This document shows positions 3,820 to 35,971 of a stretch of DNA of 64,000 nucleotides, piece after piece. Each line of letters starts with the position of its first letter. Within the stretch, counting starts at the first letter, position 1. The position numbers were made by a program, and so were the translations under genes. This stretch comes from Lachnospiraceae bacterium (lineage in GTDB: Bacteria; Bacillota_I; Bacilli_A; RFN20; CAG-826), in contig CAVKLJ010000004.1 of NCBI GenBank assembly GCA_963657245.1, positions 2,584-66,583 of the forward strand, in the 5' to 3' direction. Below the pieces are notes generated by a model. That model was given only the letters and a program-made list of their open reading frames with translations, did no database searches and was not told the origin of the DNA.

Positions 3820-3820
3820 T

Positions 3821-6748: not shown

Positions 6749-7116
6749 TGCATGAGCTTGGTATTGCCTTCGAAGTCGTGAAGGAAGTGGACCAATTTGC
6801 CAAAGACAAAAACATTGAAACTATTGCAGGCGTCACCCTTGAAATCGGAGAGGTTTCAGGGGTCGTCCCTCAATATCTCCTCGATGTTTGGCCTTGGGCA
6901 ACAGAACATCGTTCCGAACATCTAAAAGGTTCAAAACTCAACATCGTCGAACTTAAGGCAATCTCTTATTGCGAAGATTGCAAAGAGACCTACGATACCG
7001 TTCCGCAAGGGAAGAAATGCCCTCGTTGTGGAGGAGGAAATACCTACTTAGTTGAAGGAAACGAGATTAAGATCCAATCCATCCAAATTAACGAAGCCAC
7101 GCCTGAGTCTAGATGA
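6748..7116 (+). CDS. hypA: nickel insertion protein HypA
   Basis: N-terminal MHE motif. Zn site CEDC...CPRC. TAATG overlap with the upstream gene. Confidence 0.9.
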   Translation: MHELGIAFEVVKEVDQFAKDKNIETIAGVTLEIGEVSGVVPQYLLDVWPWATEHRSEHLKGSKLNIVELKAISYCEDCKETYDTVPQGKKCPRCGGGNTYLVEGNEIKIQSIQINEATPESR

Positions 7117-11158: not shown

Positions 11159-11193
11159 GATTTTTTGAATCACTTTTTCGAGAAGAGAAAAAC

Positions 11194-11224
11194 TTGCACT
11201 CAGTCGGGGGGGGGGAATTATTAT
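11194..11224 (+). promoter_or_regulatory. candidate promoter of the collagen-like lipoprotein gene, with a G10 tract in the spacer
   Basis: TTGCAC (11194-11199), 19 nt spacer containing G10, TATTAT (11219-11224). The ATG is at 11255. Confidence 0.4.
11206..11215 (+). repeat. homopolymeric G10 tract
   Basis: Ten consecutive G residues in an AT-rich intergenic region. Confidence 0.95.
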
Positions 11225-11254
11225 ATCCTCACAAGGAGTGAATCCAAAAAAACT

Positions 11255-17653: not shown

Positions 17654-20029
17654 TTAAGCGGCTAATTTAGCTTCTTGACCTTTTTTATAACGATCGTAGA
17701 AGTAGATGCCAACTCCGCCAAGGATAAGTAATCCTACTGGAACTGTCCACCCCCAAGCGGCATATTGGAAGGTAACATAGGTTAAGCAACCTAAGATATA
17801 AGATCCAAGGAGCCAGAAGAGGAGAGTTCCGATGTAATCGCGTCTTGAACTAAGTTCGCCTTTTGCAGTAGCCACAGAAGCAAAGCAAGGGATTGTTGTC
17901 ATGTTAAAGACAGCGAATGCGACTAAGGAAGCGGTGGTGATGTTTCCGCCTGTTGCGTTAGAAGCGGCAACAATTGCATTTAATCCTTCAAGGGCATCAT
18001 CTGGATCGATGTTTGCACCAATGCCAGGAAGAGCTGCTAATTGGGCTAAGACAGAAACAACGTTTTCTTTAGCGATGATACCTTGAACTGAGGCAACCGC
18101 ATATGTCCAAGCGTATTTACCGCCTTGAGCATTACCAAATCCCATTGGGGTAAATAATGGAGAGATGATCATGCCGATGTGGGCAAGGATAGAATCTGCA
18201 TCACTTAAGATGACGTCGACGTCACCTGCAGCAAACGCATCTTCTGTGAACATAGGAATGAATTGCCAAGATGGGGTAAAGCTAGACAAGAACCAAATAA
18301 TGACAGTTGAAGCAAAGATGATTGTGAATGCTTTCTTAAGATAATGTTTACCTCTGTCCCAAACGTGTAAGGCAAGGGCTTGTGGTTGAGGAAGGTGATA
18401 GGCAGGTAACTCCATGATGAATGGCGGAACCTTTTCACGCTGAGTGGTCTTATTCATTGCGATAACTGCAATGATGGCGACGACAACACCAAATAAGTAG
18501 ATTAAGAATGTGAACAAACCTTGATCAAGGCCTGAGGCGGCTGCAACTGCAGCGGCAATACAAACCAAGAATTCGGTTTTAGCTCCGCAAGTGAAGAATG
18601 GAATAACACGGATGGTTTTTGTTCTTTCTTTGTCGGAAGCAAGCGTACGGGTGTTGATCATGGCAGGAACGCCACAACCAAATCCCATGATCATTGGTAA
18701 GAAGGCTCTTCCTGAAACGCCGAAACGGCGGAAGATACGGTCTAATACGAAGGCAATACGTGCCATATATCCGGAATCTTCTAAGAAGGAGAAGAAGGCG
18801 AATAAGAGAAGAATTTGTGGAACGAATCCTAATACTGAAGCAATACCGTTAAGAACACCATCATAAACAAAGCCGGTTAGCCATTCAGGCGCATTGCAAT
18901 TAATGAGCAATTGTTTGATGCCAGTGCAAATAATGCCTTGGATACCGGAGTCATTGCCAGCACCAAAGAAATTTTGAAGGATTGCGCCAAGAGAATTAAA
19001 TCCATCTGCTGTAAAGAACAATTCTTTAAATGGATAGAAATCTTCTCCGTCGATTGTCCAATGGATGAATCCTGGATAGCCTTCGCCATAATCAAGACCC
19101 ATTGCGTGCATATAGAATAAATCGCCAGCAAATGTTAAGTGAAATATTAAGAAGAGGACAACGACCATGATTGGGAGAGCTGTCCATCTATTTGTTAAGA
19201 CTCTATCGATCTTATCGGAGAGAGATAATTTCTTCTTTTCTTGAGTGACTCCACCTTTACGATAGATTGCAAGTTCAGAGGTGATGTACTTATAACGCTT
19301 ATCCGCGCTATCAGCTTCAAAGCCTTCATGATCTTCAACCAATTCAGAAACCTCTTTATAAGCAAGAGGGTTCTTTTCTGCTTCGAGTTCATCGCCTTCT
19401 AAGGCTTTGATGGCATGGAAACGTGGGTTCAAAACTTCTTTATCTTCGTAGCTCTTTATTGCTTTTTCAATAAGTGCTGCATCTTCGCCTTTTGCCCAAA
19501 GCGAGGCACCTTCACGAGGGGTTTTTGAAGTTTTGACGGCTAAATCCATAAGCTCGTCAAGGTTTACTTTTCTTAAAGCAGAGATCTCGATTACTGGGAC
19601 TCCGAGTTTCTTAGAAAGAGCATTGGCATCAATTGATTGCTTATTGTTCTTAAGAGCGTCCATCATGTTTAAGGCAACGACGACTGGGACGTTCATTTCT
19701 AAGATTTGGGTGGTCATATAGAGGTTACGTTCTAAGTTTGTGGCATCCAAAACGTTAATGACCAAATCTGGTTTTTCTTCAAGGATATAGTTTCTTGAAA
19801 TAACTTCTTCTGGTGTATATGGAGAAAGGGAATAAATACCAGGAAGGTCAACGATTTCGACACCTTCCGTATCGCCTTTCTTTTTATAAACACCAGATCT
19901 CTTTTCAACCGTAACGCCAGGCCAGTTACCAACGTATGCTGTGCTGCCAGTTAAGGAATTAAAGAGGGTTGTTTTGCCGCAGTTAGGGTTACCTGCTAAG
20001 CAAAATCTTAATTTCTTTTCTTCGCTCAT
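17654..20029 (-). CDS. feoB: ferrous iron transporter FeoB
   Basis: G-domain GNPNCGKTTLFN, DLPG and NMMD motifs, plus a polytopic C-terminal domain. Confidence 0.95.
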   Translation of the reverse strand: MSEEKKLRFCLAGNPNCGKTTLFNSLTGSTAYVGNWPGVTVEKRSGVYKKKGDTEGVEIVDLPGIYSLSPYTPEEVISRNYILEEKPDLVINVLDATNLERNLYMTTQILEMNVPVVVALNMMDALKNNKQSIDANALSKKLGVPVIEISALRKVNLDELMDLAVKTSKTPREGASLWAKGEDAALIEKAIKSYEDKEVLNPRFHAIKALEGDELEAEKNPLAYKEVSELVEDHEGFEADSADKRYKYITSELAIYRKGGVTQEKKKLSLSDKIDRVLTNRWTALPIMVVVLFLIFHLTFAGDLFYMHAMGLDYGEGYPGFIHWTIDGEDFYPFKELFFTADGFNSLGAILQNFFGAGNDSGIQGIICTGIKQLLINCNAPEWLTGFVYDGVLNGIASVLGFVPQILLLFAFFSFLEDSGYMARIAFVLDRIFRRFGVSGRAFLPMIMGFGCGVPAMINTRTLASDKERTKTIRVIPFFTCGAKTEFLVCIAAAVAAASGLDQGLFTFLIYLFGVVVAIIAVIAMNKTTQREKVPPFIMELPAYHLPQPQALALHVWDRGKHYLKKAFTIIFASTVIIWFLSSFTPSWQFIPMFTEDAFAAGDVDVILSDADSILAHIGMIISPLFTPMGFGNAQGGKYAWTYAVASVQGIIAKENVVSVLAQLAALPGIGANIDPDDALEGLNAIVAASNATGGNITTASLVAFAVFNMTTIPCFASVATAKGELSSRRDYIGTLLFWLLGSYILGCLTYVTFQYAAWGWTVPVGLLILGGVGIYFYDRYKKGQEAKLAA

Positions 20030-20049
20030 AATGAACCTTTCTTTTTGAT

Positions 20050-20340
20050 TTACTTAGTCGTATTGATGTCGGTGACTTTAATAACGACATGTGAGGCTTC
20101 TTCTTTTCTTAATGTTAATTCGTAGCCTCTAAGCGTAATTTCAAGAGGGTCACCAAGTGGGGCTTTCTTTCTTAAGAAAACTTCTGCACCAGGAGTTAAT
20201 CCCATATCGAAAATACGTCTTTTGATCTTTCCCTCGCCTTGAATACGGAGGATGTCGCCAGACATTCCAACGCCAAGAACGTTAAGGGTGATCTCATCTC
20301 CTAACTTGATTTCGCTAGGTGTAATTTCCTTTTCTTCCAT
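20050..20340 (-). CDS. feoA: FeoA domain protein
   Basis: SH3-like FeoA pattern RRIFDMGLTPGAEV...GDPLEI. Confidence 0.8.
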   Translation of the reverse strand: MEEKEITPSEIKLGDEITLNVLGVGMSGDILRIQGEGKIKRRIFDMGLTPGAEVFLRKKAPLGDPLEITLRGYELTLRKEEASHVVIKVTDINTTK

Positions 20341-20357
20341 AATTTTTTCCTATATCT

Positions 20358-20576
20358 TTATATGACTTCAACCTGAATGGCTCTCGCCATGTTTCTATCG
20401 AGGGCAAGACGTGAGTCGCCAAGTCGCAAAATAACTCCGTTTGCTTCGCTTGACAAAAGGGTTATTTTCATCTCAGGAACGATGCCAAGTTCTCTTAGGT
20501 GTTTAATTGCTTTATCGTTTCCCACAAGTCTTACAACCGTAAGTTCTGTATCTGTTGGTGCAATCATTAAAGGCAT
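20358..20576 (-). CDS. feoA: FeoA domain protein
   Basis: LRELGIVPEMKITLL...GDSRLALDRNMA. Confidence 0.8.
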   Translation of the reverse strand: MPLMIAPTDTELTVVRLVGNDKAIKHLRELGIVPEMKITLLSSEANGVILRLGDSRLALDRNMARAIQVEVI

Positions 20577-20699
20577 AGTTAGTTACTCCTTACGTGGGTA
20601 TTATAGCCTTGCAAAATCATAAATCAACAAAAAGTTAGTAGATGATAACTAGAAATATTGTTAAAATATATTTACTTGATTCACAGAGAGGTTAAAACT

Positions 20700-21080
20700 A
20701 TGGCAATTGATGCATTAGAATCAGCAGAAGATTATCTTGAAAGAATATTGATGCTACAAAAACAAGGGATGACAGAAATCCACGCAGTGGATCTAGCTTC
20801 TTCCTTTGGTTATTCAAAGGCTTCGATTTCTATCGCTCTTCATAAATTAGAGGAGAAGGGCTATGTCGCACTTGGTTTAAAGAGCCAGCTTTATCTAACA
20901 CCAGCAGGCTATGAGATTGCTAAGAGGGTTTATGAGAAACACCAAGTCATCTCTTCCTTCCTTATGTCTATAGGAGTAGATAAAGAAATTGCTCTTAAAG
21001 ACGCATGCAGAATGGAACACTTCATTTCTGAAGAAACTTTTTCAGCTTTGAAAAAAGAATTAGAAAGCAAACAAAAATAA
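20700..21080 (+). CDS. DtxR/MntR-family metal-dependent transcriptional repressor (two-domain, no SH3-like domain)
   Basis: ESAEDYLERI...SKASISIALHKLEEKGYV...ACRMEHFIS. Divergent from the feo operon. ATG at 20700 preceded by a GAGAGG RBS. Confidence 0.85.
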   Translation: MAIDALESAEDYLERILMLQKQGMTEIHAVDLASSFGYSKASISIALHKLEEKGYVALGLKSQLYLTPAGYEIAKRVYEKHQVISSFLMSIGVDKEIALKDACRMEHFISEETFSALKKELESKQK

Positions 21081-21223: not shown

Positions 21224-22504
21224 ATGTCAACTTTGGCAATTCAAGGAATGCAATGGGGCGATGAAGGTAAGGGTAAGATTACCGATTATTTCGCTTCTAA
21301 AGCGGATGTCGTAGTCCGTTCACAAGGAGGAAACAATGCTGGCCATTCAATCGTTTTCAACGGAAAACGTTATGCGTTAAGGCTACTCCCTTCTGGCGTA
21401 TTCCATAAAAATATCGTTAACGTTATTGCTGATGGAGTAACGGTTAATCCAACCGCTTTAATAGATGAACTTGATTCTTTGAAAGAACAAGGAATTGAAG
21501 GTATCCAATTATTGATTTCTAATCGTGCGACTCTTTTGATGCCATATCACGTTGATCTTGATAAAGCTCGTGAAAACGCTCTTGGAAAAGCCAAAATTGG
21601 CACAACTGGAAGAGGAATTGGCCCTTCTTATGAAGATAAAGCCTCACGTTTAGGCTTAAGAATGGGCGATATTGTCGATGAAGAATATCTCAAAGAAAGA
21701 TTAGATGAAGTCCTTCCAATCAAGAATCTTGAACTTAAGGCATTTGGCGCCAAAGAATACACTGTTGAAGAGCTTTTGAAATATCTTGCCCCAGTAAGAG
21801 AACGTCTTTCTTCTTTAATAACCGATACATCTTTATTCTTAGAGGAACAAATCGCTAACGGAAAGAAAGTTCTTTTCGAAGGCGCACAAGGGGCGATGCT
21901 TTGCTTAACGCATGGCACCTATCCATATGTAACTTCATCTTCACCTCTAGCAACCGCCATTCCACTTAATGCTGGTTTGCCATTAGATTCCATTGATACG
22001 ATGTGTGGCATCACAAAAGCCTATTGCACACGTGTTGGCGCAGGCCCATTCCCAAGCGAAATCGATAATGAGGAAGCAAATAGTATTCGTGAAAAAGGCC
22101 ATGAATATGGCACAGTCACAAAACGTCCAAGACGTATTGGCTGGCTTGATGTCATGGAACTTAAATATATTAAGAGAGTAACTGGCGTCAAATATAGCGC
22201 GTTGATGTTACTCGATGTTCTTTCTGCCGTTGATGAAATCAAACTTTGCGTTGGCTATAAACTAAATGGCAAAGAAATAAACACAATGCCATCAACCGTT
22301 AAAGAAGTTGGCAAGATTGAGCCTATTTTTATCAGTATGCCATCTTGGAAAGAAGACATTTCCAAATGCAGAAGCTTCGAAGAATTACCTCTTGCCGCTC
22401 AAAATTATATCAAGAAAGTTGAAGAATTATCAGGCATCTACTTTGCCATCGTTTCTGTCGGACCAGACAGAGAAGAAACCATCATCCGTAAGGAGCTTTT
22501 CTAA
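21224..22504 (+). CDS. purA: adenylosuccinate synthase
   Basis: QWGDEGKGK, GGNNAGH and TGRGIGP motifs. Confidence 0.95.
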   Translation: MSTLAIQGMQWGDEGKGKITDYFASKADVVVRSQGGNNAGHSIVFNGKRYALRLLPSGVFHKNIVNVIADGVTVNPTALIDELDSLKEQGIEGIQLLISNRATLLMPYHVDLDKARENALGKAKIGTTGRGIGPSYEDKASRLGLRMGDIVDEEYLKERLDEVLPIKNLELKAFGAKEYTVEELLKYLAPVRERLSSLITDTSLFLEEQIANGKKVLFEGAQGAMLCLTHGTYPYVTSSSPLATAIPLNAGLPLDSIDTMCGITKAYCTRVGAGPFPSEIDNEEANSIREKGHEYGTVTKRPRRIGWLDVMELKYIKRVTGVKYSALMLLDVLSAVDEIKLCVGYKLNGKEINTMPSTVKEVGKIEPIFISMPSWKEDISKCRSFEELPLAAQNYIKKVEELSGIYFAIVSVGPDREETIIRKELF

Positions 22505-23799
22505 TGATTGAGCGTTACGCCCCAAAGAAAATCGAAGAACTCTTTTCCGATGAAGCAAGATTCAATTCGTATCTTGAGATAGAAATTGCAGTCGTTGAAG
22601 GCTGGAATAAATTAGGCCTTGTTCCTGATTTAGATTTAGAAAAGATCCATCAAAACGCCAAAGTTGATGTTGCCCGTATCAAAGAAATTGAGACAATAAC
22701 CAAACACGACGTCGTTGCCTTTACTAGACAAGTAAGCGAAACTCTCGGAGAAGAAAGAAAATGGATTCATTATGGCTTAACTTCAACTGATGTTGTTGAT
22801 TCGGCCTTGGGCCTTCAATATAAAAAAGCCAATGAAATCATTGAAAAAGACTTTCTTTCTTTGATGGAATCGTTAAAGGAGAAGGCTTTGGAATACGAAT
22901 TTCAGCCATGTATGGCTAGAACACACGGCATGCATGCGGAAATATATTCCTTTGGCTTGAAATTTGCTTCTTTCTACGATGAAGCAAAACGTTCTTTGTC
23001 TTTCTTTAATGCGGCAAGGAAAGAAGTTGAAGCGGTAAAACTTTCTGGTGCGGTTGGAACATATGCCAATATCGATCCAAGCATCGAAAAATATGTTGCG
23101 GAAAAACTCGGCCTAACCAAACCAAGCGTTTCGACTCAAGTCCTTTCAAGAGATAGACATGAGGAATACGCTTCAGCAATGGTCGTGGCCTCTTCTTTGA
23201 TCGAAAAGATTGCCGTTGAAATTAGAAATCTCTCCCGCACCGAGATTGGCGAGCTTGAAGAAGGTTTCTCCAAAGGGCAAAAAGGCTCATCGGCAATGCC
23301 TCAAAAACGTAATCCGATATCCTCAGAAAACCTTACTGGCGCAGCTAGAATGATGAGAGGTTATTTGATTCCTATATTGGAAGATAACGCCCTCTATCAC
23401 GAAAGAGATATCTCCCACTCAATTGTTGAAAGAGTAAGCCTCATTGATATGATCGAATTATTCGATTACATGCTCATCAGAATGAAGAAAGTGGTGGATA
23501 ATCTCTCTATTTTCCCAACTAAGATGGAAGAAAACATCCAAAAGAGCCATGGAGCAATTTACTCGCAAAGAGCGATGAACGCTTTGATTGAAAAAGGCCT
23601 AACACGTGAAGAGGCTTATGACCTTGTTCAACCTCTTGCAATGAACTCTGTTACTAAAGGTATGGATTTCATCAACCAACTTATTATAAATAAGGATGTT
23701 CTAAAACACTTAAGCGAAAAAGATATCACCTCACTAACTAGCAACGAATATTACTTCAAAAACATTGATTATATTTATAAAGAAATAGGCTTGAAATAA
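22504..23799 (+). CDS. purB: adenylosuccinate lyase
   Basis: Fumarate-lyase signature GSSAMPQKRNP. TAATG overlap with purA. Confidence 0.95.
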   Translation: MIERYAPKKIEELFSDEARFNSYLEIEIAVVEGWNKLGLVPDLDLEKIHQNAKVDVARIKEIETITKHDVVAFTRQVSETLGEERKWIHYGLTSTDVVDSALGLQYKKANEIIEKDFLSLMESLKEKALEYEFQPCMARTHGMHAEIYSFGLKFASFYDEAKRSLSFFNAARKEVEAVKLSGAVGTYANIDPSIEKYVAEKLGLTKPSVSTQVLSRDRHEEYASAMVVASSLIEKIAVEIRNLSRTEIGELEEGFSKGQKGSSAMPQKRNPISSENLTGAARMMRGYLIPILEDNALYHERDISHSIVERVSLIDMIELFDYMLIRMKKVVDNLSIFPTKMEENIQKSHGAIYSQRAMNALIEKGLTREEAYDLVQPLAMNSVTKGMDFINQLIINKDVLKHLSEKDITSLTSNEYYFKNIDYIYKEIGLK

Positions 23800-23814
23800 G
23801 CCTTTTCTTTTTAT
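23787..23814 (+). terminator. terminator overlapping the purB stop codon
   Basis: AGGCTT-gaaat-AAGCCT stem followed by TTTTCTTTTT. Confidence 0.6.
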
Positions 23815-23936
23815 TTAAATAAAAGTTAGGCAAATAAAACTTAGATTTTTCCGAAGAAATTAGGCATTTTAGTTTGCTTAACATTGCCAATTTTCATAGT
23901 AAAATAATTTTTGAATTGAGAAAGGAATTTTTTTCT

Positions 23937-24185
23937 ATGGAAACGAGTAAAGAAACTGCTCAAGTATGTATTCGTTGCGCTCGTTGTATTCACGCTTGCC
24001 CATTAGGCTTAAATCCAGTCAATATCATGACGACGATGAAAAGCATGCCTGTCGACAAAGCAAAGATTAAATTACTTAATCCTTCCGTTTGTGATGAATG
24101 CAAGAAATGTAACGATGTTTGCCCGAGCAATATTGATTTAGCAACAATTGTGAAGAGAGCTAAGATTGTTGCCAAACTCCCTTAA
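23937..24185 (+). CDS. 82-aa 2x[4Fe-4S] ferredoxin-like protein corresponding only to the C-terminal domain of RnfC
   Basis: CIRCARCIHACP ... CDECKKCNDVCPSNIDL. The long inter-motif spacer and the CPSNI tail are RnfC-like. RBS AAAGGA. First gene of the rnf-type operon. Confidence 0.7.
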   Translation: METSKETAQVCIRCARCIHACPLGLNPVNIMTTMKSMPVDKAKIKLLNPSVCDECKKCNDVCPSNIDLATIVKRAKIVAKLP

Positions 24186-24197
24186 TGAGGTATTAAC

Positions 24198-25361
24198 ATG
24201 AGTGTAGAAGTAACTAAAACTAATTCTGCAGAAGTAGTTGCCGCACCAGCTCCTAAAAAAGCCCATAAGCAATCTGTCGAATGGATGCTATATGATGTGC
24301 TTATTGCTCTTGCTCCAACTGTTATTTATGCAGTTCTAATGTATGGTGTATATGCCATACGTAACATTTTGATCCCTGCCGCGACAATGTTTATCGCAGA
24401 AATGGTCTTTGTTGTTATCAAAAATCGCAAAGCCCTATTTAGCAAGGATGAAAAAACCAAGAAATCATTCTTTGATGTATTAAGCATCACTGATATTGTT
24501 TCTCCATTAATTTCAGGAATTATCTTTGGCTTGATGGTCTCAAATAGAGATACAGATCCTGCTGGACTTATCTATTTCATTTTGATTGTTTCATCTTTAT
24601 TCGGGATTATCTTTGGAAAACTCTGTTTCGGTGGTTTAGGAAAGAATATCTTCAACCCAGCTGCTGTTTCCTTTGTTTTCATGCTTGTTTGCTTTAATTC
24701 CAAATTCACTGGCACATATCACCTTAATGCTTGGGGAATTTCTTTCTTAGGAAACGCCTCATTCGAAGCTGGTGCAACACCATTAGCCAATGGATTCAAT
24801 GCAAGCCTATATAGCTTAGATAACATCAAAGCCTTATTCCTTGGCCAAGTTAATGGTGGAATTGGCGAATCTTGCAAGATTCCTCTTCTTATTGGGCTTG
24901 TCTATTTATTGGTTAGAAGAGATATTGATTGGAAGACAATCGTTTCCTTCCTTTTGATGTTCTTAGCAATGTCCCTTGTTGCCGGATTATTCTTCTTAGG
25001 CAAAAAGGACGTGAATCCTCTTTACTACATGCTTTATCAATTGCTTAGCGGTGGCGTCTTCTTCGGAATGACGTACATGATAAGCGAACCTGTAACAATG
25101 CCTCTTACTTCTCCTAGCAGAGTTATGTACGGCATGGTTATTGCAATTATTGTCGTATTCATCAGAACCTTTGCCTCTGCTCCTGAAGGAATGGCCTATG
25201 CAATCCTTATGGGCAACGCACTTGGTTGCTTTATCGACTACTACAAATGGAGCCAAACAAAATTCAGTTGGAAGAGCTGGGTGGCAATTGCTGCAATTGC
25301 AGTCGTCGGTCTTGCCATCTTTGCCTGGTGCATGAATGGCTTCAATTACGGAGGAAATTAA
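24198..25361 (+). CDS. rnfD: Rnf complex subunit D
   Basis: NQR2/RnfD-type polytopic protein. AGATPLA (flavinylation-site motif), NIFNPAA, and SGGVFFGMTYMISEPVT. Confidence 0.9.
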   Translation: MSVEVTKTNSAEVVAAPAPKKAHKQSVEWMLYDVLIALAPTVIYAVLMYGVYAIRNILIPAATMFIAEMVFVVIKNRKALFSKDEKTKKSFFDVLSITDIVSPLISGIIFGLMVSNRDTDPAGLIYFILIVSSLFGIIFGKLCFGGLGKNIFNPAAVSFVFMLVCFNSKFTGTYHLNAWGISFLGNASFEAGATPLANGFNASLYSLDNIKALFLGQVNGGIGESCKIPLLIGLVYLLVRRDIDWKTIVSFLLMFLAMSLVAGLFFLGKKDVNPLYYMLYQLLSGGVFFGMTYMISEPVTMPLTSPSRVMYGMVIAIIVVFIRTFASAPEGMAYAILMGNALGCFIDYYKWSQTKFSWKSWVAIAAIAVVGLAIFAWCMNGFNYGGN

Positions 25362-25362
25362 T

Positions 25363-26829
25363 ATGAGTGAAGAAATTAAAAACACTACTGTTCCTTCAGA
25401 AGAAAAGAATGATTGGAAGAAATGGCTCAAAGTTGGTGGAATCCTTTGCGCAATTGCTGGAGCAAGCGCCCTCGTTTTGACCTCTCTTAATTTATTAACT
25501 GCCCCAATCATCGAAGAAAACAATGCCAAAAAACAATCTGGTGGTTATCGTGAGATTTTCTCCAATTGGGCGGCAAACTCTGATCCGGTCGCAATTGAAG
25601 GCAATGACAATCTAGCCGAATATTGCATCGCATATTCTGATACTGCCAAAACAAATCAAATTGGCTACATCTATACTTCCAAGACCTTGGCTGTCAAATC
25701 CTTTGGTAACGTCAAAGCCATGGTTGGTATTTCTGGTGAAACTGATTCACCAGTCTTAGGAAAGATTTATCTTGTTGAAAATTCCCTTTCTTACAAGACA
25801 ACTCTTGAAAGCGGATATATCCTTCCATATAACTCCAACCCAGGCGATACAACACTCAATAACGTTAAGTGCGGCGCAACCTTTGGTGCTGAAGCGATTA
25901 AAGGAATAATCAATGCTGCAAGAGATCACTATTCTTCAATCGGAGATAGTTTCAAAGAAGACCTTGCTGATGATATCAAACAAATCTGGGGTGAAAATTC
26001 CGGATATACGGTTGATAATTCCGAAACCAACAACGTTTCTGGAACAACTTATGTCAAGAAATCATATTCATTCTATGAAGATGATACGATGACAGGCGAA
26101 ATCGGTCGTCTTTATTCTGCAAAATACAAGGGAGATGCAGGGGATATTTACATTACTGTGTCTTTCAATGAGAAGAATGAGTTAGGCAAACTTGTCGTTA
26201 CAAAAGACACATTAGCTGATAACACGTCTCTTAATAACTATGTTTCCGCTTATAACTCCAACCCATCAGAAGAAACGCTTAATGCCACAAATGGTGCAGA
26301 TTCTGAAGCTGTTAAAGCAATGGTAAGCGAAGCTAAGACGACTTTAACAACTGCTGGCGGATTGAAATCTTCATCTTCATATTTTAAAGATGTTATTGCT
26401 TCTAGCGCCTATTCTGAGGTGAGCGAAGCTACTGCTCTTACAAAAGATGCGGCTGAAAAAGTCAATGTTCTTCGTTATTGGACGTTCTCTAAGACCGAGA
26501 CAACCGAATCGGAAGAGGAGAAAGTTACAGAAGTTGCAAAAGTCTATAAGATCCAAGCAACCATGGAAGCAAAGAGCTATACGACAATCGAATCCGATAC
26601 AGTTTACTTATTAACAATCACCGGTTCTAAGGATTCACCTGCTTTAGGTAAGATGACCTTATTAAAGAATGAAGCTGGTGGCGGTCAAGTTTCTGATATT
26701 GAAAGTTACTTCACAAATTTTGATGGCTCGCAAACAAGCGAAGGCGTTAACGGAAGTGGAGCAACCTACACCTTGAAAGCCGTTTGGGAAGGCATAGAGA
26801 AGGCAAAAGCTCTCTATAGCGCAGAATAA
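25363..26829 (+). CDS. rnfG: Rnf complex subunit G, expanded: TM anchor plus three tandem FMN_bind-like modules
   Basis: N-terminal TM helix and LTAPII motif. Each of the three modules contains an LGK(I/L/M) motif; the modules end in VKCGATFGAEAI, TNGADSEAV and GSGATYTLKAV. 488 aa. Confidence 0.8.
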   Translation: MSEEIKNTTVPSEEKNDWKKWLKVGGILCAIAGASALVLTSLNLLTAPIIEENNAKKQSGGYREIFSNWAANSDPVAIEGNDNLAEYCIAYSDTAKTNQIGYIYTSKTLAVKSFGNVKAMVGISGETDSPVLGKIYLVENSLSYKTTLESGYILPYNSNPGDTTLNNVKCGATFGAEAIKGIINAARDHYSSIGDSFKEDLADDIKQIWGENSGYTVDNSETNNVSGTTYVKKSYSFYEDDTMTGEIGRLYSAKYKGDAGDIYITVSFNEKNELGKLVVTKDTLADNTSLNNYVSAYNSNPSEETLNATNGADSEAVKAMVSEAKTTLTTAGGLKSSSSYFKDVIASSAYSEVSEATALTKDAAEKVNVLRYWTFSKTETTESEEEKVTEVAKVYKIQATMEAKSYTTIESDTVYLLTITGSKDSPALGKMTLLKNEAGGGQVSDIESYFTNFDGSQTSEGVNGSGATYTLKAVWEGIEKAKALYSAE

Positions 26830-26843
26830 GGAGGAAAAAGAAT

Positions 26844-27602
26844 ATGGAAAAAACAAATATTTCACGTTCACAACATAAAGAGAACTTCCTTAATCCAATT
26901 TGGAAACAAAATCCTCTCTTTGTCTTATTGCTTGGTACTTGCCCAGCTTTAGCCGTTACAACAACGATTGAGAACGCCATTGGTATGGGTATTCTCTTTA
27001 CCTTCGTCTTGGTTGGCTCAAGTGTTTTGGTTTCTCTCCTACGTAAGGTCATTCCTGAAGAAGTTGAGACTCCAGCTTATATCATCATCATCGCTACATT
27101 TGTTACTATCGTTAAAATGTTAGCGGAAGCCTTTGTTCCTGAACTTTATACAGGACTTGGTGTCTTTATTTCCTTACTTGTAGTTAACTGCATCGTTTTA
27201 GGAAGAGCTGAAGCTTTTGCTAAGAAGAATACGGTTTATGACTCTTTCCTTGATGCGTTAGGAAATGGCGTTGGCTATATTATCGCCATCTTAATCATTG
27301 CCGCAGTTCGTGAGATCTTAGGAACTGGTATGATTACAGTTGGCGCAGTCTTCACCTTTATTCCAAAGACATCCCTTCATATTTTGAAATTCGATAATCT
27401 CGATCTTTCAATCCCTCTCTTTGCTAAGCCAGCCGGCGGCTTCATCGTCTATGGCGTTATCGAAGCTATAATTGCCGCTAAAAACATTAGCAAACAACAA
27501 AAAGAAGCTGCAGCAAAGAAAGCGGCTCTCTTAAAGGCCCAAGCCGAAAAAGCAGCTGCCGCTAAGACTTTAGCTGCTAACACTCCTAAGGAGGCAAAAT
27601 AA
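26844..27602 (+). CDS. rnfE: Rnf complex subunit E (with an Ala/Lys-rich C-terminal tail)
   Basis: NPLFVLLLGTCPALAVTT and VVNCIVLGRAEAFA. Extra tail QQKEAAAKKAALLKAQAEKAAAAK. Confidence 0.9.
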   Translation: MEKTNISRSQHKENFLNPIWKQNPLFVLLLGTCPALAVTTTIENAIGMGILFTFVLVGSSVLVSLLRKVIPEEVETPAYIIIIATFVTIVKMLAEAFVPELYTGLGVFISLLVVNCIVLGRAEAFAKKNTVYDSFLDALGNGVGYIIAILIIAAVREILGTGMITVGAVFTFIPKTSLHILKFDNLDLSIPLFAKPAGGFIVYGVIEAIIAAKNISKQQKEAAAKKAALLKAQAEKAAAAKTLAANTPKEAK

Positions 27603-28192
27603 TGACTGCTACAAATTTATTTACAGCATTCTTGCTTGCAATCGTTTCATCTTTATTGATCAACAACGTTGTTCTTTCTAGATTCTACGGAATTTGCTCC
27701 TACCTAGGTGTTTCCACGAAAGTGAAATCGTCCGTTGGTATGGGCATTGCCGTTGTCTTTGTCATCATGCTTGCCTCTTTGGTTTGCTACCCAATTTATA
27801 ATTTCGTTCTTGTTCCAGCAGGCTTAGCCTTCTTGGATACAATCGTTTATATTTTGGTTATCGCTTCCTTGGTTCAACTTGTTGCTCTTGTTATCAAGAA
27901 ATATTCCCCATCTCTTTATAAGAGCTTAGGCATCTACTTGCCTCTTATCACCACAAACTGCGCAGTTCTTGGCGTTGTCCAAGAAAACAACACTCTTTCC
28001 TTTGCCAATTCCATGGCTAACGCCATTGGTACAAGCGTCGGCTTCCTTGTCATGATCGTTCTTTTCTCAACAATCAGAACAAGATTAGATTCAACCGACT
28101 CTCCAAAGGCTTGGAAGGGTTTGCCTCTTGCTTTGATTACTGCCGCCATCATGGCTATGGCCATAATGGGATTAAGTGGCATGGTCGCATAA
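27602..28192 (+). CDS. rnfA: Rnf complex subunit A
   Basis: INNVVLSRFYGIC, LPLITTNCAVLGV. TAATG overlap with rnfE. Confidence 0.9.
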   Translation: MTATNLFTAFLLAIVSSLLINNVVLSRFYGICSYLGVSTKVKSSVGMGIAVVFVIMLASLVCYPIYNFVLVPAGLAFLDTIVYILVIASLVQLVALVIKKYSPSLYKSLGIYLPLITTNCAVLGVVQENNTLSFANSMANAIGTSVGFLVMIVLFSTIRTRLDSTDSPKAWKGLPLALITAAIMAMAIMGLSGMVA

Positions 28193-28193
28193 T

Positions 28194-28424
28194 ATGCAAA
28201 GAATTCATTACATTCTCATCGCGATCGCGATTCTTGTGGCATTGATTGCAATATTCATCATCAGTTTCGTTGCATATCGTCGTACACCCGCTCCAAAAGG
28301 GTGCGAAGATCTCAAACCTGAATCTGATATGTGCTCGCAATGCCAAAAGACATCGTGTGCATTCTACGAAGAATACCATAAAGAAAACGATGAGAAGGAT
28401 GAGCAAAATAAAGGAGATAAATGA
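28194..28424 (+). CDS. 76-aa single-TM protein with a cytoplasmic 4-Cys cluster, embedded in the rnf operon
   Basis: TM helix IHYILIAIAILVALIAIFIISFVAY, then RR, then C-x11-C-x2-C-x4-C and an acidic tail. Starts 1 nt after the rnfA stop. ATGA overlap with the next gene. Confidence 0.5.
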   Translation: MQRIHYILIAIAILVALIAIFIISFVAYRRTPAPKGCEDLKPESDMCSQCQKTSCAFYEEYHKENDEKDEQNKGDK

Positions 28425-28753
28425 ATATGGGTCCATTAACAATACTCTGGGGTGTCTTAGTTCTTGCCGGACTTGGCCTTGTGCTTGGCTTCTTACTTGC
28501 ATTAGCCGCTAAATTCCTCCATGTTGAAGAAGATAAGCGTATCAAAGAAGTGGAAAGCATGTTACCAGGTGCTAACTGCGGTGCTTGCGGATATGCCGGT
28601 TGCCACGATTTAGCCGAAGCCTTAGTTACAGGCGCAGCAAAGAAAGTTACAGCTTGCAAAGTCGGTAAAAAAGAGAAGAATTTTGATCCAATTGTAGCCT
28701 ATATGAAGGCTACTCCAGGACCAGATGGAAAAATTACTGAAGTAAGTGAATAA
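28421..28753 (+). CDS. rnfB: truncated-type RnfB: TM helix plus N-terminal Fe-S cluster domain only, no ferredoxin domains
   Basis: LPGANCGACGYAGCHDLAEAL...ACKVG (CxxCx4Cx16C) after one TM helix. 110 aa. Confidence 0.75.
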   Translation: MNMGPLTILWGVLVLAGLGLVLGFLLALAAKFLHVEEDKRIKEVESMLPGANCGACGYAGCHDLAEALVTGAAKKVTACKVGKKEKNFDPIVAYMKATPGPDGKITEVSE

Positions 28754-29078: not shown

Positions 29079-32000
29079 ATGTGGTGTATGATGCCAACAA
29101 GTAATGAAGCAAACAACAACTTTGATGGTAAAATCGACAAGTTTCTTAAACAAACGTTAGAAAGTTCATCTTTGTGTTTTGGCATTTTTGATACGAATTC
29201 TGGCAAGGCTGAAACTATTCTTTTATCGAAAGGTTTCAAAACGAATTTCAATAAAAACAATCCTTCTAGTAAAGAAACAATCTTTGGGATTTCAGTTGTC
29301 AACGTCCATAAAGATGATGTAGAAGGCTTCAAGGAAAAAGCATCTTCCTTAGTTAACGGGGGAGATGAACTAGATTTATATTTCCGTTTCCATTCATCAT
29401 CTAATAGCCTTTATCATTCAATCCACGCCTTAGGAAGACGTATCAAACTTGAAGGAGATGATTTCCTTTTTGTTTGGTATAACGATTTAGCAAGGATGGA
29501 TGATGATACGTTTGTCTTTGATGAAAGAGCCTATGATAACACCGTTAGCATCATTAAAAAATATTATGATGACGAATTAACTGGGTTGCCAAGGATGGCC
29601 AATTTCGTTCATCACGTCCAAGAACTGTTATCGACCCCATATATTGATGAGAAGAATTATGTTCTTCTTGCCTTTGACTTAACGGGTATGAAAGCCTTCA
29701 ACATGAAATATGGCTTCGAAAACGGGGACCGTTTGATCATCTCTATTGCCGACATTTTGAAAAAACATTTCGAAACTCAATCAATTTCACGTTTTGGCGA
29801 GGATCATTTCTACGTTTTAACCGAGAATGATGAGATTGAAAAAACAATCAAAGAGATTTTTGAAGACGTTAAAAAAGCAAATGATGGCAATACCTTACCT
29901 ATTCGTGTTGGCATCTATAAAGACAAAATAACGGATATTTCGGTTGCTTGCGATAAGGCGAAAACGGCCGCGGATGTTGGAAGACATTCCTATATTTCCC
30001 ATTTCACGTATTTTGATGAAAATCTATCAGAAGAAATCGAAAAACGTGATTTTATTTTAAATAATTTAGAAAATGCCATAGAAAAAGGCCATATTCAGCC
30101 ATATTATCAACCAATCGTTAGAACATTGAATAATAAGGTTGCAGATGAAGAGGCCCTTGCCCGTTGGAAAGATCCTGAGAAAGGATTATTAAATCCTGCA
30201 GATTTCATCTCAATTCTTGAAGATGCAGGAATCATCTATAGATTAGATTTATGTATCCTAGATTGCGTCCTTGCCGACTTAAAAAAGAAAAAAGACAAAG
30301 GCCAATATCTAACTCCAGTTTCAATTAATATTTCTCGTTATGATTTTGAATCGTGCAATATCGTTGAACTAGTTTCAAAGAAAGTCACGGAAAGTGGCTT
30401 TTCTCCCGACTTAATCATTATCGAAATAACTGAATCTGCCGCTTTCTATAACAAAGCATTGCTTATCGAACAAGTGAATAGATTCCATGAATGTGGCTTT
30501 AAAGTCTGGGTTGATGATTTTGGCAGTGGCTATTCTTCCTTAAACAGCCTTCAAGAATTCTCTTTCGATGGAATGAAAATAGATATGGGTTTCTTATCTT
30601 CTTTTAAAGAGAATAAGAAAACTCCAAGTATCATCAAAGAAACAATCAAACTTGCGGAAAAAATCGGTATAGATACAATTTGCGAAGGCGTTGAAACAAA
30701 AGAAGAATTGGATTTCTTGCGTGAAGCTGGATGCGATAAAGTCCAAGGTTACTATTTCTCTAAGCCAAATCCAATCGATTATATAATTTCTGGACAGACT
30801 CCTTTAAAGAGAGAAAATCCTGAAGAGCGTGAATACTATCGTGAAATAGCTCTTTCTTCACTTAGTGAGCCTGAATCAAATGGCGATAAAGGCACCATGG
30901 CAGAGCGCGCCTTATCTGGACCTAGTGTTGGAATCATCGAAGTAAAGGATAACACATTCCGCCTCTTAAGAACGACAAAGGCTTTTAAGAGCGCGTGTGA
31001 AATCGAAGGGTTTATTTCTCCTAATGAGCAATTTGATGGTGGCTATCCATTCATTCGAACACCTGATTCTTTCTTCTCTGAAGCAATATATAGGGCTTGT
31101 GATACAGGAAATTGGGAAGAAACATCCTTCTATTCCGAAAGACGCATAACCACGTTCTTCTTTAGATTAGTTTCTACAAATCCTGTTACTAAGGCTAAGT
31201 CTGTCATGTGCATCATGTCTTATGCCAATAAGGGCAGTGATAAAAAAGTCCAAAGAGAAGCTGAACTAATCAATTTAGAAACTATCAATGTTGATGATTT
31301 CCCATTACCTGTAATCATCATCGAACTTTGTAACGACGCCGGAAAAGAGCGTCTTAAATGTTTGAACCTTAATAAAGCGTTCTCTGAATTAGCATCGGTA
31401 ACTCCTGAAGAAGCGAAAAACTCTAACTATCTTGAAAGTGTCTTTGATAAAAAGAATGAGTGGAAGAAACTAATAAAGCAAGTTCTTTCCGTTAGAAGAC
31501 CTTTAAAGGGAGAGACTTTCCATGAGCCAACGCGCCTATGGATGAATTTCATAATTTCTCCTTGTTTAAGTGAGAATTGCGTGTGTGTGACCATCCTTCA
31601 AGATAGCAGCTCTTTCTCCTTATTTGAAAAAAGAGCAATTAACTGCGATGATGAAGCCTATAGAATTGCTAGTATCTTAAAACAAGATGGCAATCATTCA
31701 AAAAAGATCGATGATGCCCTAAATGAATTTGGTCGCTCATCTAATGCGGATGACGCTTTGGTGATTGAAATAAATGGAAACGTCATTGAACATTGCCACG
31801 AGTGGAACAAACCAGCTTTCAATCCTTTATCTAGAGAAATTGATGAAGCTGAATTTGTTAATTTACTAGCCTTTTTAAGAAAACGTTTTAAAGAAGAAAC
31901 CTATGTTTCCGTTAAAGCCATTGAAGAATTGAAAATAAATGGTGGAACATTCTATGATTGGTGTAGAGCACATGGGGTAAAACGTTTCTTGATTTTCCCA

Positions 32001-33317
32001 TTATTCTCCCAAGGAAAATTAATCGGTCTCTTCATTGTTAACAATTACGAAATTAATAATGCCGAATTTACAAGAAAGTTGATGGAAAAGCTTTCTGGAG
32101 TTTTCTCTTCGCAGATAAGTTTATCTTACAAAGATAAAGAGAAAAACGAAAAAACACATGGATTTCCTAAGTATTTTTCCGATTCTAGCGACTTGAAGAC
32201 CAAAATTAAACGTTTCTTTGGAATTGGCAAAAGAAGTGCGTCGGAAAATATCTATAACGATCGTAGCAACATCGAAATAGGGCGACTTACATCTGCCTTC
32301 CTTGGTTTGTTTGAACTTGTGTTTGCAATTGTCTTTACCATTAATTTCTATTTAAACAAAGATAAACAACCAGATAACATCTACTATCAAAGCACATGGG
32401 TTTGGAGCCACTTGGCTTTATACGCTTTTGCATTTGTCGTAAACGCCCTCTTCTTCCTTTATTGTGAGTTCTATTATCATGATAAATTCACTAAAGTTAA
32501 GAAATTATCTTTAAAAACCCATGTTGTGATCGATGCATATGTATTGTGCATAATCACTTTCGGAATGCTTATCTCTATTATGGACGTGCAAAATGGCGGA
32601 CAACCAATAACGTTCGTTACAATGCTACTATATACAATGCTGATTTTCCGCTTATATCCGATCAAGAGCATCATCTATCTATTCGTCATGAATGTTTTAT
32701 TTGTCATTCTCCTTTGCGAAGTTCCGATGGTCAACCTTCCTATGGATAAAATAAACATGAGCTTGGATATAGGGGCATTTGCTAACATCATTTGTGTATT
32801 TATTCTTGAATGCGTTGCTTCATCTCTTCTTTATAAAGCCAGAATGAGAGCGGCCGCACACTGTATTGTCGATACTCTTTCAGGCACTAAATGCCGCTTT
32901 GCCTTACAAGAAGATTTCAAGCACTTAGAAGGAAAACGAGTTGTTGTCATGATGCTTGATGTCGATGATTTTAAGTTACTTAATGACATCTACGGTCACC
33001 AAGCGGGGGATGAAGTCATTAACGAAGTTGGCCAAGCTTTAATTAAGACCTTTGGTGTTGAATCGGTTTACCGTTATGGCGGAGATGAATTCCTTGTTAT
33101 CAAAAAAGGCGATTTATTCTCTTTTGAAAAACATTTATTTAACCTACAACGTAATATAAGTTCAGTAACCTCACTTGATATGAACGTTACCTTCTCGGCT
33201 GGCTATAAAGAGCATCTTGTTGGAGAAAATGCTTCTCTAGATGAAGTGATTAGAGAGTCTGACTTGCTCTTATACGAAGCTAAGAAACGTGGCAAGAATC
33301 AAATCGTCAAAGGATAA
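29079..33317 (+). CDS. multidomain c-di-GMP signalling protein: PAS-like, degenerate GGDEF, EAL, PAS/GAF-like region, ~6 TM helices, canonical GGDEF
   Basis: First cyclase motif reads RFGEDHF. EAL motifs EEALARW, EITES, DDFGSGYSS, EGVETKEE and QGYYFSKP. C-terminal YRYGGDEFLVI. The start codon is uncertain. Confidence 0.8.
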   Translation: MWCMMPTSNEANNNFDGKIDKFLKQTLESSSLCFGIFDTNSGKAETILLSKGFKTNFNKNNPSSKETIFGISVVNVHKDDVEGFKEKASSLVNGGDELDLYFRFHSSSNSLYHSIHALGRRIKLEGDDFLFVWYNDLARMDDDTFVFDERAYDNTVSIIKKYYDDELTGLPRMANFVHHVQELLSTPYIDEKNYVLLAFDLTGMKAFNMKYGFENGDRLIISIADILKKHFETQSISRFGEDHFYVLTENDEIEKTIKEIFEDVKKANDGNTLPIRVGIYKDKITDISVACDKAKTAADVGRHSYISHFTYFDENLSEEIEKRDFILNNLENAIEKGHIQPYYQPIVRTLNNKVADEEALARWKDPEKGLLNPADFISILEDAGIIYRLDLCILDCVLADLKKKKDKGQYLTPVSINISRYDFESCNIVELVSKKVTESGFSPDLIIIEITESAAFYNKALLIEQVNRFHECGFKVWVDDFGSGYSSLNSLQEFSFDGMKIDMGFLSSFKENKKTPSIIKETIKLAEKIGIDTICEGVETKEELDFLREAGCDKVQGYYFSKPNPIDYIISGQTPLKRENPEEREYYREIALSSLSEPESNGDKGTMAERALSGPSVGIIEVKDNTFRLLRTTKAFKSACEIEGFISPNEQFDGGYPFIRTPDSFFSEAIYRACDTGNWEETSFYSERRITTFFFRLVSTNPVTKAKSVMCIMSYANKGSDKKVQREAELINLETINVDDFPLPVIIIELCNDAGKERLKCLNLNKAFSELASVTPEEAKNSNYLESVFDKKNEWKKLIKQVLSVRRPLKGETFHEPTRLWMNFIISPCLSENCVCVTILQDSSSFSLFEKRAINCDDEAYRIASILKQDGNHSKKIDDALNEFGRSSNADDALVIEINGNVIEHCHEWNKPAFNPLSREIDEAEFVNLLAFLRKRFKEETYVSVKAIEELKINGGTFYDWCRAHGVKRFLIFPLFSQGKLIGLFIVNNYEINNAEFTRKLMEKLSGVFSSQISLSYKDKEKNEKTHGFPKYFSDSSDLKTKIKRFFGIGKRSASENIYNDRSNIEIGRLTSAFLGLFELVFAIVFTINFYLNKDKQPDNIYYQSTWVWSHLALYAFAFVVNALFFLYCEFYYHDKFTKVKKLSLKTHVVIDAYVLCIITFGMLISIMDVQNGGQPITFVTMLLYTMLIFRLYPIKSIIYLFVMNVLFVILLCEVPMVNLPMDKINMSLDIGAFANIICVFILECVASSLLYKARMRAAAHCIVDTLSGTKCRFALQEDFKHLEGKRVVVMMLDVDDFKLLNDIYGHQAGDEVINEVGQALIKTFGVESVYRYGGDEFLVIKKGDLFSFEKHLFNLQRNISSVTSLDMNVTFSAGYKEHLVGENASLDEVIRESDLLLYEAKKRGKNQIVKG

Positions 33318-35895: not shown

Positions 35896-35971
35896 GGTCC
35901 ATTAGCGCAGTGGTTAGAGCGAACGACTTATAATCGTTAGGTCTCAGGTTCAAACCCTGAATGGACCACCA
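35896..35971 (+). tRNA. tRNA-Ile (anticodon UAU)
   Basis: GGTCCATTAGCGCAGTGGTTAGAGCGAACGACTTATAATCGTT...ATGGACCACCA. Anticodon loop CTTATAA. Confidence 0.8.

Follow-up and report, generated by a model that had tools for sequence, protein, structure and literature searches.

Rnf has a central place in the energy conservation of anaerobes, and all versions of it that have been studied biochemically or structurally couple, to our knowledge, ferredoxin to NAD(H). Here we describe an rnf operon that lacks the canonical NAD(H)/FMN site of this complex. It is found in a stretch of 64,000 nt from an assembly labelled Lachnospiraceae bacterium (GCA_963657245.1, contig CAVKLJ010000004.1; the whole stretch is referred to as the window in the following). 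At positions 23937-28753, seven co-directional open reading frames (ORFs), abutting or overlapping, lie between purB (22504-23799) and a tRNA-Ala gene (28814), in the order C-D-G-E-A-(x)-B, where x denotes a small additional ORF (Table 1). A first-pass annotation, made from the sequence alone, had placed the same seven genes at the same positions and had read them as a stripped-down Rnf. The promoter-like site is located 32 nt 5' of the first, 82-aa ORF, which is preceded by the ribosome-binding site GAAAGGAA, and the gap between purB and this ORF measures 137 nt.

Table 1. The rnf operon and its upstream signals (positions in the window)
Feature	Position	Strand	Size or description	Basis
Terminator-like hairpin across purB stop	23787-23803		precedes promoter-like site	sequence read
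Promoter-like site	23878-23905	+	TTAACA-16-TAAAAT	consensus scan, 10/12 matches, consensus match only
Short RnfC	23937-24185	+	82 aa	Fer4 families and C-terminal end of rnfC model
RnfD	24198-25361	+	387 aa	PF03116 at 7.9e-62
RnfG	25363-26829	+	488 aa; alternative start 25336 gives 497 aa	Foldseek top match 7zc6_G
RnfE	26844-27602	+	252 aa	PF02508 at 4.9e-61
RnfA	27602-28192	+	196 aa	PF02508 at 1.4e-53; rnfA model 227 bits
Subunit x	28194-28424	+	76 aa	no Pfam or NCBIfam family
Short RnfB	28421-28753	+	110 aa	PF04060 only

The membrane core of the complex is complete. RnfD, RnfE and RnfA are full-length members of their families (Pfam, NCBIfam) with locatable cofactor residues, as the first-pass annotation had judged, and all three score higher on rnf than on nqr models (NCBIfam); for RnfE, both the rsxE and the rnfE models are above their cut-offs. 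RnfD matches the solved RnfD (7zc6, 8ahx, 9eri) and NqrB chains, bears an extra hydrophobic C-terminal helix and carries PF03116 only, with no fusion to the NqrF-type domain PF00175. Its predicted site of covalent FMN attachment is Thr194 in the motif AGATPL (nt 24777-24779), a column that is conserved as Thr or Ser across the family. The four Cys residues for the intramembrane [2Fe-2S] cluster, whose role is described for the RnfA/RnfE pair (PMC12174285), are found as Cys33 and Cys116 in RnfE and as Cys32 and Cys120 in RnfA. RnfE also ends in the 40-aa Ala/Lys-rich tail that had been pointed out before.

RnfC is described as a NuoF-like FMN/NADH domain followed by a small C-terminal two-cluster domain, which bridges the riboflavin of RnfD to that FMN (PMC12174285). 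Of these two parts, the window RnfC retains only the latter. The 82-aa protein matches 4Fe-4S dicluster families only, together with positions 356-429 of the 435-position rnfC model (Pfam, NCBIfam); it aligns with residues ~362-430 of the RnfC chains 8ahx_C, 9eri_C and 7zc6_C, and it shares 50-59% identity with the C-terminal 72-100 aa of the full-length RnfC of its relatives. Its 2x[4Fe-4S] ferredoxin domain carries the motifs CIRCARCIHACP and CDECKKCNDVCP. In the Pfam/NCBIfam scan, RnfC_N, Complex1_51K and SLBB gave no match to it. This negative outcome had been predicted by the first-pass annotation, and its identification of the protein as the C-terminal 2x[4Fe-4S] domain of RnfC is borne out by both the family scans and the alignment to solved chains. 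The NADH/FMN part of RnfC, ~354 residues, is thus deleted in this operon, and the intergenic gap after purB contains no rnfC remnant. With no more than a 2x[4Fe-4S] wire left between the RnfD riboflavin and the cytoplasm, the complex no longer has its canonical NAD(H)/FMN site. That the ORFs are short because TGA is read as Trp (genetic code 4) was considered and rejected, given that ORFs of up to 1412 aa are read under code 11 and that the gap after purB offers no space for the absent N-domain.

The truncation of rnfC is old, stable and under selection. The architecture of the window operon, with purA-purB upstream, recurs in 13 other species-level assemblies with RnfD identities down to 56%, so that the short RnfC is a shared form; a survey of related genomes for such forms had been suggested by the first-pass annotation. 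Together with the window operon, we refer to these operons as the window clade. The 13 assemblies bear the prefixes CAVKFY, UQFY, CAVGNL, CAVHQU, CAVIJE, CAVKAU, CAVIBR, CAVGNR, CAVJFO, CADAUN, DBKT, CADAXQ and CAVFKA. Within the clade, 8/8 Cys of the short RnfC are kept, its C-terminal helix is conserved too, and its ratio of non-synonymous to synonymous substitution rates (dN/dS) is 0.065. The corresponding pairwise values are 0.10 for RnfD, 0.18 for RnfG, 0.05 for RnfA, 0.12 for subunit x and 0.04 for the short RnfB, and the range of 0.04-0.18 for all seven genes indicates strong purifying selection. In database records, short RnfC proteins of 82-85 aa are found on more than 100 contigs (one variant on 107), and their public annotation is only 'hypothetical protein'. 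With the same architecture in 13 independent assemblies and on more than 100 contigs, the assembly error that the first-pass annotation had wished to exclude can be dismissed.

The second short subunit is RnfB. It is described as being made up of three parts: a TM (transmembrane) helix, a single-[4Fe-4S] domain on a flexible tether, from which electrons are shuttled to the RnfA/E [2Fe-2S] cluster, and a C-terminal domain whose 2-7 clusters form the acceptor for ferredoxin (PMC12174285). The 110-aa protein of the window comprises the TM helix, the single-cluster shuttle domain (C53, C56, C61, C79) and a conserved short tail. It matches PF04060 (FeS) only, together with positions 1 to ~83 of the rnfB models, and aligns with residues 4-78 of the RnfB chains 7zc6_B, 9eri_B and 8ahx_B; for a Fer4 or polyferredoxin acceptor domain, Pfam and NCBIfam gave no match, so the C-terminal multi-cluster part of RnfB is missing. 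The first-pass annotation had described the helix, the single cluster and the lack of Fer4 domains correctly, but the Cys spacing is CxxCx4Cx17C, and not x16 in the last interval. The short RnfB belongs to a family of at least 133 homologous clusters; the 120 clusters listed measure 76-164 aa, nearly all of them 95-140 aa, with PF04060 in all and a second domain in one, and their members, if named, are called RnfB or '(Fe-S)-binding protein'. The window complex therefore keeps the shuttle of RnfB and the bridge of RnfC without the substrate-facing domain of either, whereas its relatives with full RnfC are without the RnfB acceptor domain only.

Subunit x, which had been noted as a 76-aa TM plus 4-Cys ORF before rnfB, is indeed present and possesses one N-terminal TM helix, followed by PKGCE...C-x2-C-x4-C (Cys37, 47, 50, 55). 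The four Cys are invariant among the close relatives that were aligned. A profile search with x yielded 131 representatives of 40-101 aa, except for one repetitive protein of 2951 aa; across these, C-x2-C-x4-C is the commonest core, and the first Cys is absent in about 20. One distant member lies between rnfA and a 102-aa rnfB, adjoining a full-length rnfC. The spacing of the core is the same as at the start of the cluster motif in the RnfB shuttle domain, and a profile-profile comparison between x and the short RnfB gives 88-93% probability over the TM helix and CxxCx4C, a value that is inflated by the TM helices. These similarities are suggestive of x being a degenerate RnfB paralogue. As the positively charged side of a TM helix faces the cytoplasm (the positive-inside rule), the positive residues after the helix of x would place its Cys motif in the cytoplasm.

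RnfG consists of an N-terminal TM/linker helix and three modules (~aa 60-195, 197-336 and 338-487). Compared with each other in hhalign, the modules give probabilities of 99.3%, 99.6% and 98.6%, which makes RnfG a genuine triplication; where relatives have a single-module RnfG, its counterpart in the alignment is module 1. Its AlphaFold2 (AF2) model, with a mean predicted local distance difference test (pLDDT) score of 84 and a predicted template modelling (pTM) score of 0.72, displays three alpha/beta modules behind a long N-terminal helix, and its sole significant match in the PDB is RnfG 7zc6_G (Foldseek). By contrast, the Pfam FMN_bind match is marginal (E = 0.087, below threshold), and the RnfG homologues found have no Pfam domain on record.

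The flavinylation motifs of RnfG read KCGAT173 in module 1, NGAD313 in module 2, where the Thr is lost, and SGAT468 in module 3. No variation occurs in C170-G171-A172-T173 and A467-T468-Y469 among 15 homologues, and module 3 carries an invariant x-A-T-Y that takes the form SGAT in the window. In the window clade and in its full-RnfC sister clade alike, the flavinylation Thr is present in modules 1 and 3; in module 2, it is lost in the former, the motif is absent in the latter, and GAT is kept in locus L011. The first-pass view of three FMN_bind-like modules therefore stands as far as the triplication goes, but it has to be qualified in that FMN_bind is matched only marginally and module 2 is without its Thr. 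RnfG hence combines the membrane anchor, extracytoplasmic FMN-binding domain and flavinylation motif of an Rnf subunit with the makeup of a multi-flavinylated RnfG, namely three homologous modules of which the first and third have motif-predicted flavin sites. Across the family, RnfG ranges from ~160 to ~1150 aa and from 1 to at least 5 modules. Among its extremes are a 696-aa RnfG with five tandem modules and GAT in each (L069, 5590-7680) and an RnfG of 1154 aa (L100, 4138-7602). In a further locus (L107, 4394-6241), the 615-aa RnfD has lost its own flavinylation Thr but extends at its C-terminus into a fused FMN_bind domain.

For a survey of the family, the x profile was scanned against one genome per species, which resulted in 76 loci, all from uncultured Bacilli of gut or rumen. 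Their record titles include Mollicutes, Erysipelotrichaceae, Bacillales, Candidatus Enteromonas and Candidatus Enterosoma, and the family presumably belongs to the order RF39. At all readable loci, RnfB has 104-138 aa and x lies just before rnfB. The readable RnfC proteins are full-length (430-498 aa), except in the window clade, and carry RnfC_N, Complex1_51K and SLBB; in the operons reached through more distant homologues of RnfG and the short RnfB, they measure 431-439 aa. In these full-RnfC relatives, the order is C, D, G, E, A, x and short RnfB, mostly followed by genes for ApbE, NusG_II and Hpre_diP_synt_I. This cassette of apbE, NusG_II (PF07009) and Hpre_diP_synt_I (PF07456) stands directly after rnfB, for instance at L029 9415-11341, and is missing as a block from the loci of the window clade. 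In a neighbour-joining tree of RnfD+E+A, the short-RnfC genomes form one clade, and the nearest relatives of this clade have a full RnfC, a ~495-aa RnfG and apbE. The truncation of rnfC thus arose once, together with the loss of the operon-linked apbE.

Since the minimal RnfB, subunit x and the multi-module RnfG are present in the full-RnfC relatives, they are ancestral traits of the family, and only the truncation of rnfC and the loss of the apbE cassette are specific to the window clade. This changes the picture drawn in the first-pass annotation. The short RnfB and the 4-Cys ORF, which it had taken for a special stripping-down, are the family norm across 76 loci, alongside full-length RnfC, and the tripled RnfG, which it had counted among the same set, predates the rnfC truncation and falls within the family's spectrum of module numbers. 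Likewise, its conclusion that the complex cannot be a textbook ferredoxin:NAD+ enzyme holds inasmuch as the complex has lost its canonical NAD(H) site. A minimal RnfB, on the other hand, coexists with an NADH-type RnfC in the family, so that ferredoxin:NAD+ chemistry is not excluded by RnfB alone. With three of its four 'unusual' features being family norms that coexist with NADH-type RnfC, the window operon is less exotic than it had seemed.

Several single observations from the survey concern RnfC and the records themselves. At locus L030 (4642-5643), with purA-purB upstream, the RnfC called has 333 aa and no RnfC_N, which may reflect a partial truncation or a frameshift or miscall. In the sister clade, RnfC residues ~136-147 read GLGGSSFPSYVK, where we would presume a GxGGAGFP-type FMN/NADH-site motif as in RnfC/NuoF-like proteins; if this departure is real, the NADH-type relatives may bind nucleotide or flavin differently. 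Finally, L004, L009, L001, L003 and other 'cleanbin' assemblies contain a Mollicutes-like operon under titles such as Escherichia coli, Bacteroides uniformis, Alistipes communis and Prevotella sp., so that the organism names of these bins clash with the content of the contigs.

We also looked for the missing parts elsewhere. With full RnfC, the ApbE of L011, NusG_II and Hpre_diP_synt_I as queries, tblastn found only the C-terminal domain of RnfC in the window and the flanks of those clade loci that it covered. No full-length rnfC or polyferredoxin rnfB is encoded in the 64-kb window or in these flanks, and no apbE lies next to any clade locus in the survey. When the remaining ORFs of the window, down to a length of 120 aa, were annotated with Pfam, no apbE, rnf paralogue or flavodoxin emerged, and the window contains no small ferredoxin or flavodoxin ORF. 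An alignment of sister-clade RnfC residues 1-350 was furthermore scanned against the genome collection. It retrieved 105 relatives, and none of the best 80 (at least 41% identity) came from the 13 clade assemblies; the scan depends on its pattern, the metagenome-assembled genomes are not complete, and it would miss an NADH module that is not orthologous.

With the solved Rnf complexes of Clostridium tetanomorphum (7ZC6), Azotobacter vinelandii (8AHX) and Acetobacterium woodii (9ERI), the window operon shares the order C-D-G-E-A-B, homologous RnfD, RnfG, RnfE and RnfA with the flavinylation Thr and the four [2Fe-2S] Cys, the TM helix and single-cluster shuttle of RnfB, and the C-terminal two-cluster domain of RnfC. 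It differs from them in that it is without the entire NuoF-like FMN/NADH part of RnfC and the 2-7-cluster, ferredoxin-accepting domain of RnfB, and in that it adds a 76-aa membrane subunit with a Cys motif, the Ala/Lys tail of RnfE and three RnfG modules instead of one. The uncharacterised operons of related Bacilli (e.g. L029, L052 and L025) have the short RnfB of 104-138 aa, x between rnfA and rnfB, a long-tailed RnfE and a divergent RnfG that is missed by Pfam, in the nearest clade with three modules and motifs in the first and third. They differ by their own 430-498-aa RnfC and, mostly, the apbE, NusG_II and Hpre_diP_synt_I genes after rnfB.

Among published concepts, the nearest are the multi-flavinylated RnfG and the two-subunit NQR/RNF-like system, the latter with an architecture of its own. 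Clusters with multi-flavinylated RnfG have more than one FMN-binding module per RnfG as well, but their description includes neither the loss of the NADH module nor subunit x (PMC8238504). That survey defined its clusters by Pfam FMN_bind or ApbE plus KEGG RnfB (PMC8238504); with FMN_bind below threshold and apbE unlinked, the window operon probably escapes this definition. The two-subunit NQR/RNF-like systems (PMC8238504, PMC10979944) resemble it as reduced derivatives with a proposed one-way electron flow from the cytoplasm to an extracytosolic FMN. They pair an RnfG-like protein with an RnfD-like protein that carries a fused NqrF-type NAD-binding domain, without RnfA, RnfE and RnfB, and we rejected this class for the window operon, which has all of the A/E/D/G core together with the two Fe-S stubs, and no NAD-binding domain. 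In Na+-NQR, the RnfC homologue NqrA has lost all cofactors and NqrF has replaced RnfB, which illustrates that the peripheral modules are exchangeable (PMC12174285). Na+-NQR, however, keeps a large cofactor-less NqrA, takes up NADH via NqrF and reduces quinone, whereas the window operon contains no NqrF-like gene and its RnfC keeps the opposite part, with the clusters retained and the large domain lost. When truncated or short forms of RnfC and RnfB were looked for in the literature, nothing relevant turned up, x is likewise undescribed there, and the RNF/NQR review does not mention short forms of RnfC or RnfB (PMC12174285).

The neighbourhood of the operon includes genes for iron uptake. Just upstream of purA-purB-rnf, feoB, feoA and a second feoA lie on the minus strand (17654-21080), divergent from a gene for a DtxR-type repressor. 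In the sister clade, the same feo genes are found just downstream of rnf-apbE, for example at L029 11345-14661, where a small divergent ORF occupies the position of the repressor. No inverted repeat that could serve as an iron-repressor operator was seen upstream of the operon or in the feoA/dtxR intergenic region. The adjacency may represent a functional iron link or mere conserved synteny; its presence in both clades hints weakly at the former, the two cases being non-independent.

As is well supported by the above, the window Rnf derives from the Rnf of uncultured gut and rumen Bacilli and is specific to its lineage. For its function, we tentatively favour ferredoxin-driven electron export via RnfG, with its two predicted flavin sites, to an extracytoplasmic acceptor, and consider the chances of this proposal to be a little short of even. 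Reduced ferredoxin or a similar one-electron carrier would reduce the cluster of the short RnfB, which subunit x may aid as a docking or extra metal site. The electron would then pass through the membrane by way of the RnfA/E [2Fe-2S] cluster and reach RnfG module 1 with its covalent FMN. Without an NAD+ site, it would find its productive exit in the second covalent FMN on module 3, from where it could be passed to acceptors such as Fe(III), free flavins or a surface reductase. The RnfD/short-RnfC arm would be retained for two roles, one in the ion-coupling core and the other as an additional Fe-S port on the cytoplasmic side. We prefer outward export because it requires no newly evolved partner: with the RnfG exit already in the ancestor, the loss of the NAD+ exit would have been tolerable. 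The first-pass annotation had likewise suggested an electron conduit to the cell surface, which is a plausible idea. A second electron path to extracytosolic acceptors has been proposed for multi-flavinylated RnfG (Meheust et al. 2021, eLife, PMC8238504). A bolder version, which we regard as less likely than not, would see here an NAD-independent Rnf descendant that acts as a ferredoxin-driven exporter in wall-less or reduced gut Bacilli, its two-flavin RnfG arm reducing extracellular acceptors (e.g. Fe(III) for Feo), with x as a new seventh, RnfB-like metal-binding subunit that replaces the polyferredoxin domain family-wide.

A number of points weigh against electron export. Short of a whole-genome search, we came upon no acceptor, surface reductase or flavin transferase; the flavinylation of modules 1 and 3 is a motif-based prediction; and the full-RnfC relatives share the same RnfG, so the extra modules alone are no sign of NAD-independence. 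The linkage to feo amounts to at most two evolutionary events, and in the AF2 model of x, the TM helix is confident, with the Cys loop at a pLDDT of only ~50. Lastly, the short RnfC has preserved its eight Cys without exception, and electrons could still exit to a cytoplasmic partner. This leads to the main rival, an ion-pumping ferredoxin:X oxidoreductase that would still work in a semicircle, with two cytoplasmic carriers as its substrates. X, a soluble one-electron carrier with a higher potential than the donor ferredoxin (e.g. flavodoxin or a second ferredoxin) or another Fe-S enzyme, would dock on the RnfC stub in place of NAD+. The conservation of all eight stub Cys and the C-terminal helix at a dN/dS of 0.065, that of the RnfD flavin site and the entire core, and the position of the two-cluster domain on the electron path from the RnfD riboflavin to the cytoplasm in solved complexes (PMC12174285) all speak for it. 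However, a new partner interaction would have to have arisen with the deletion, no small ferredoxin or flavodoxin ORF offers itself in the window as the carrier, and the strict conservation of the Cys could equally be explained by the need of such a small domain for its clusters in folding. We thus see in it a realistic possibility, though the less probable one.

The remaining explanations fare worse. The complex could still be a conventional ferredoxin:NAD+ enzyme if its NADH/FMN module were provided in trans, by a split-off N-terminal rnfC gene or a NuoF/HydB-like flavoprotein that docks on the stub. Whole genomes were outside the scope of our search, and an NAD(P)-binding Fe-S flavoprotein (975 aa, GltD-like) in the window shows that such proteins exist here; this protein is, however, encoded 17 kb away, between hypB and hypA. 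Moreover, the best 80 of the 105 N-domain relatives include none from the 13 clade assemblies, the gap between purB and the stub holds no remnant, and the N-domain of solved structures is tethered via the very polypeptide that is now cut, all of which renders a module in trans improbable. The loss of apbE and of the NADH module could also be regarded as steps in the decay of an Rnf operon in a reduced genome, or the clipped rnfC and rnfB as products of mis-assembly. Yet the gene boundaries are identical in all 13 independent assemblies and on the more than 100 contigs, dN/dS is low in every gene, all cofactor ligands are retained, and the form was kept while the clade diverged to 56% RnfD identity. 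On these grounds, assembly error and gene decay are effectively refuted. Electron export via RnfG hence remains our preferred, if tentative, proposal.

Some further genes of the window deserve mention. The 975-aa protein (3821-6748) is flanked by hypB (3145-3819) and hypA (6748-7116); its C-terminal 590 aa are those of a GltD/NfnB-like NAD(P)-binding Fe-S flavoprotein, and its N-terminal ~320 aa have no match in Pfam, NCBIfam or PDB sequences. The nickel chaperones around it (3145-7116 in total) are odd, as no hydrogenase, urease or CODH gene is in sight. A 738-aa protein with collagen triple-helix repeats is encoded at 11165-13381. Immediately behind the tRNA genes on the downstream side of rnf, at 29079-33317, lies the gene for a 1412-aa protein with an EAL and a C-terminal GGDEF domain and long stretches without a Pfam match. 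At 35896-35971, ARAGORN finds a tRNA-Ile with the anticodon TAT (UAU), which is uncommon, AUA usually being read in bacteria by a lysidine-modified CAU tRNA.

The conserved, selected deletion of the NADH module implies that the membrane core of Rnf can be re-used with other partners. The window Rnf thereby offers a natural minimal system for the ion pumping, gating and direction of electron flow of this core. The minimal RnfB and subunit x, in turn, bear on how ferredoxin feeds the complex without the polyferredoxin domain, in which current structural models see the acceptor site. The host organisms are common, uncultured members of human and animal gut communities, and studies of these lineages record Rnf merely as present. 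Given that the short RnfC is annotated as 'hypothetical' and that the RnfG homologues have no recorded Pfam domain, scoring Rnf as present in this way would misassign the redox balance of these organisms.

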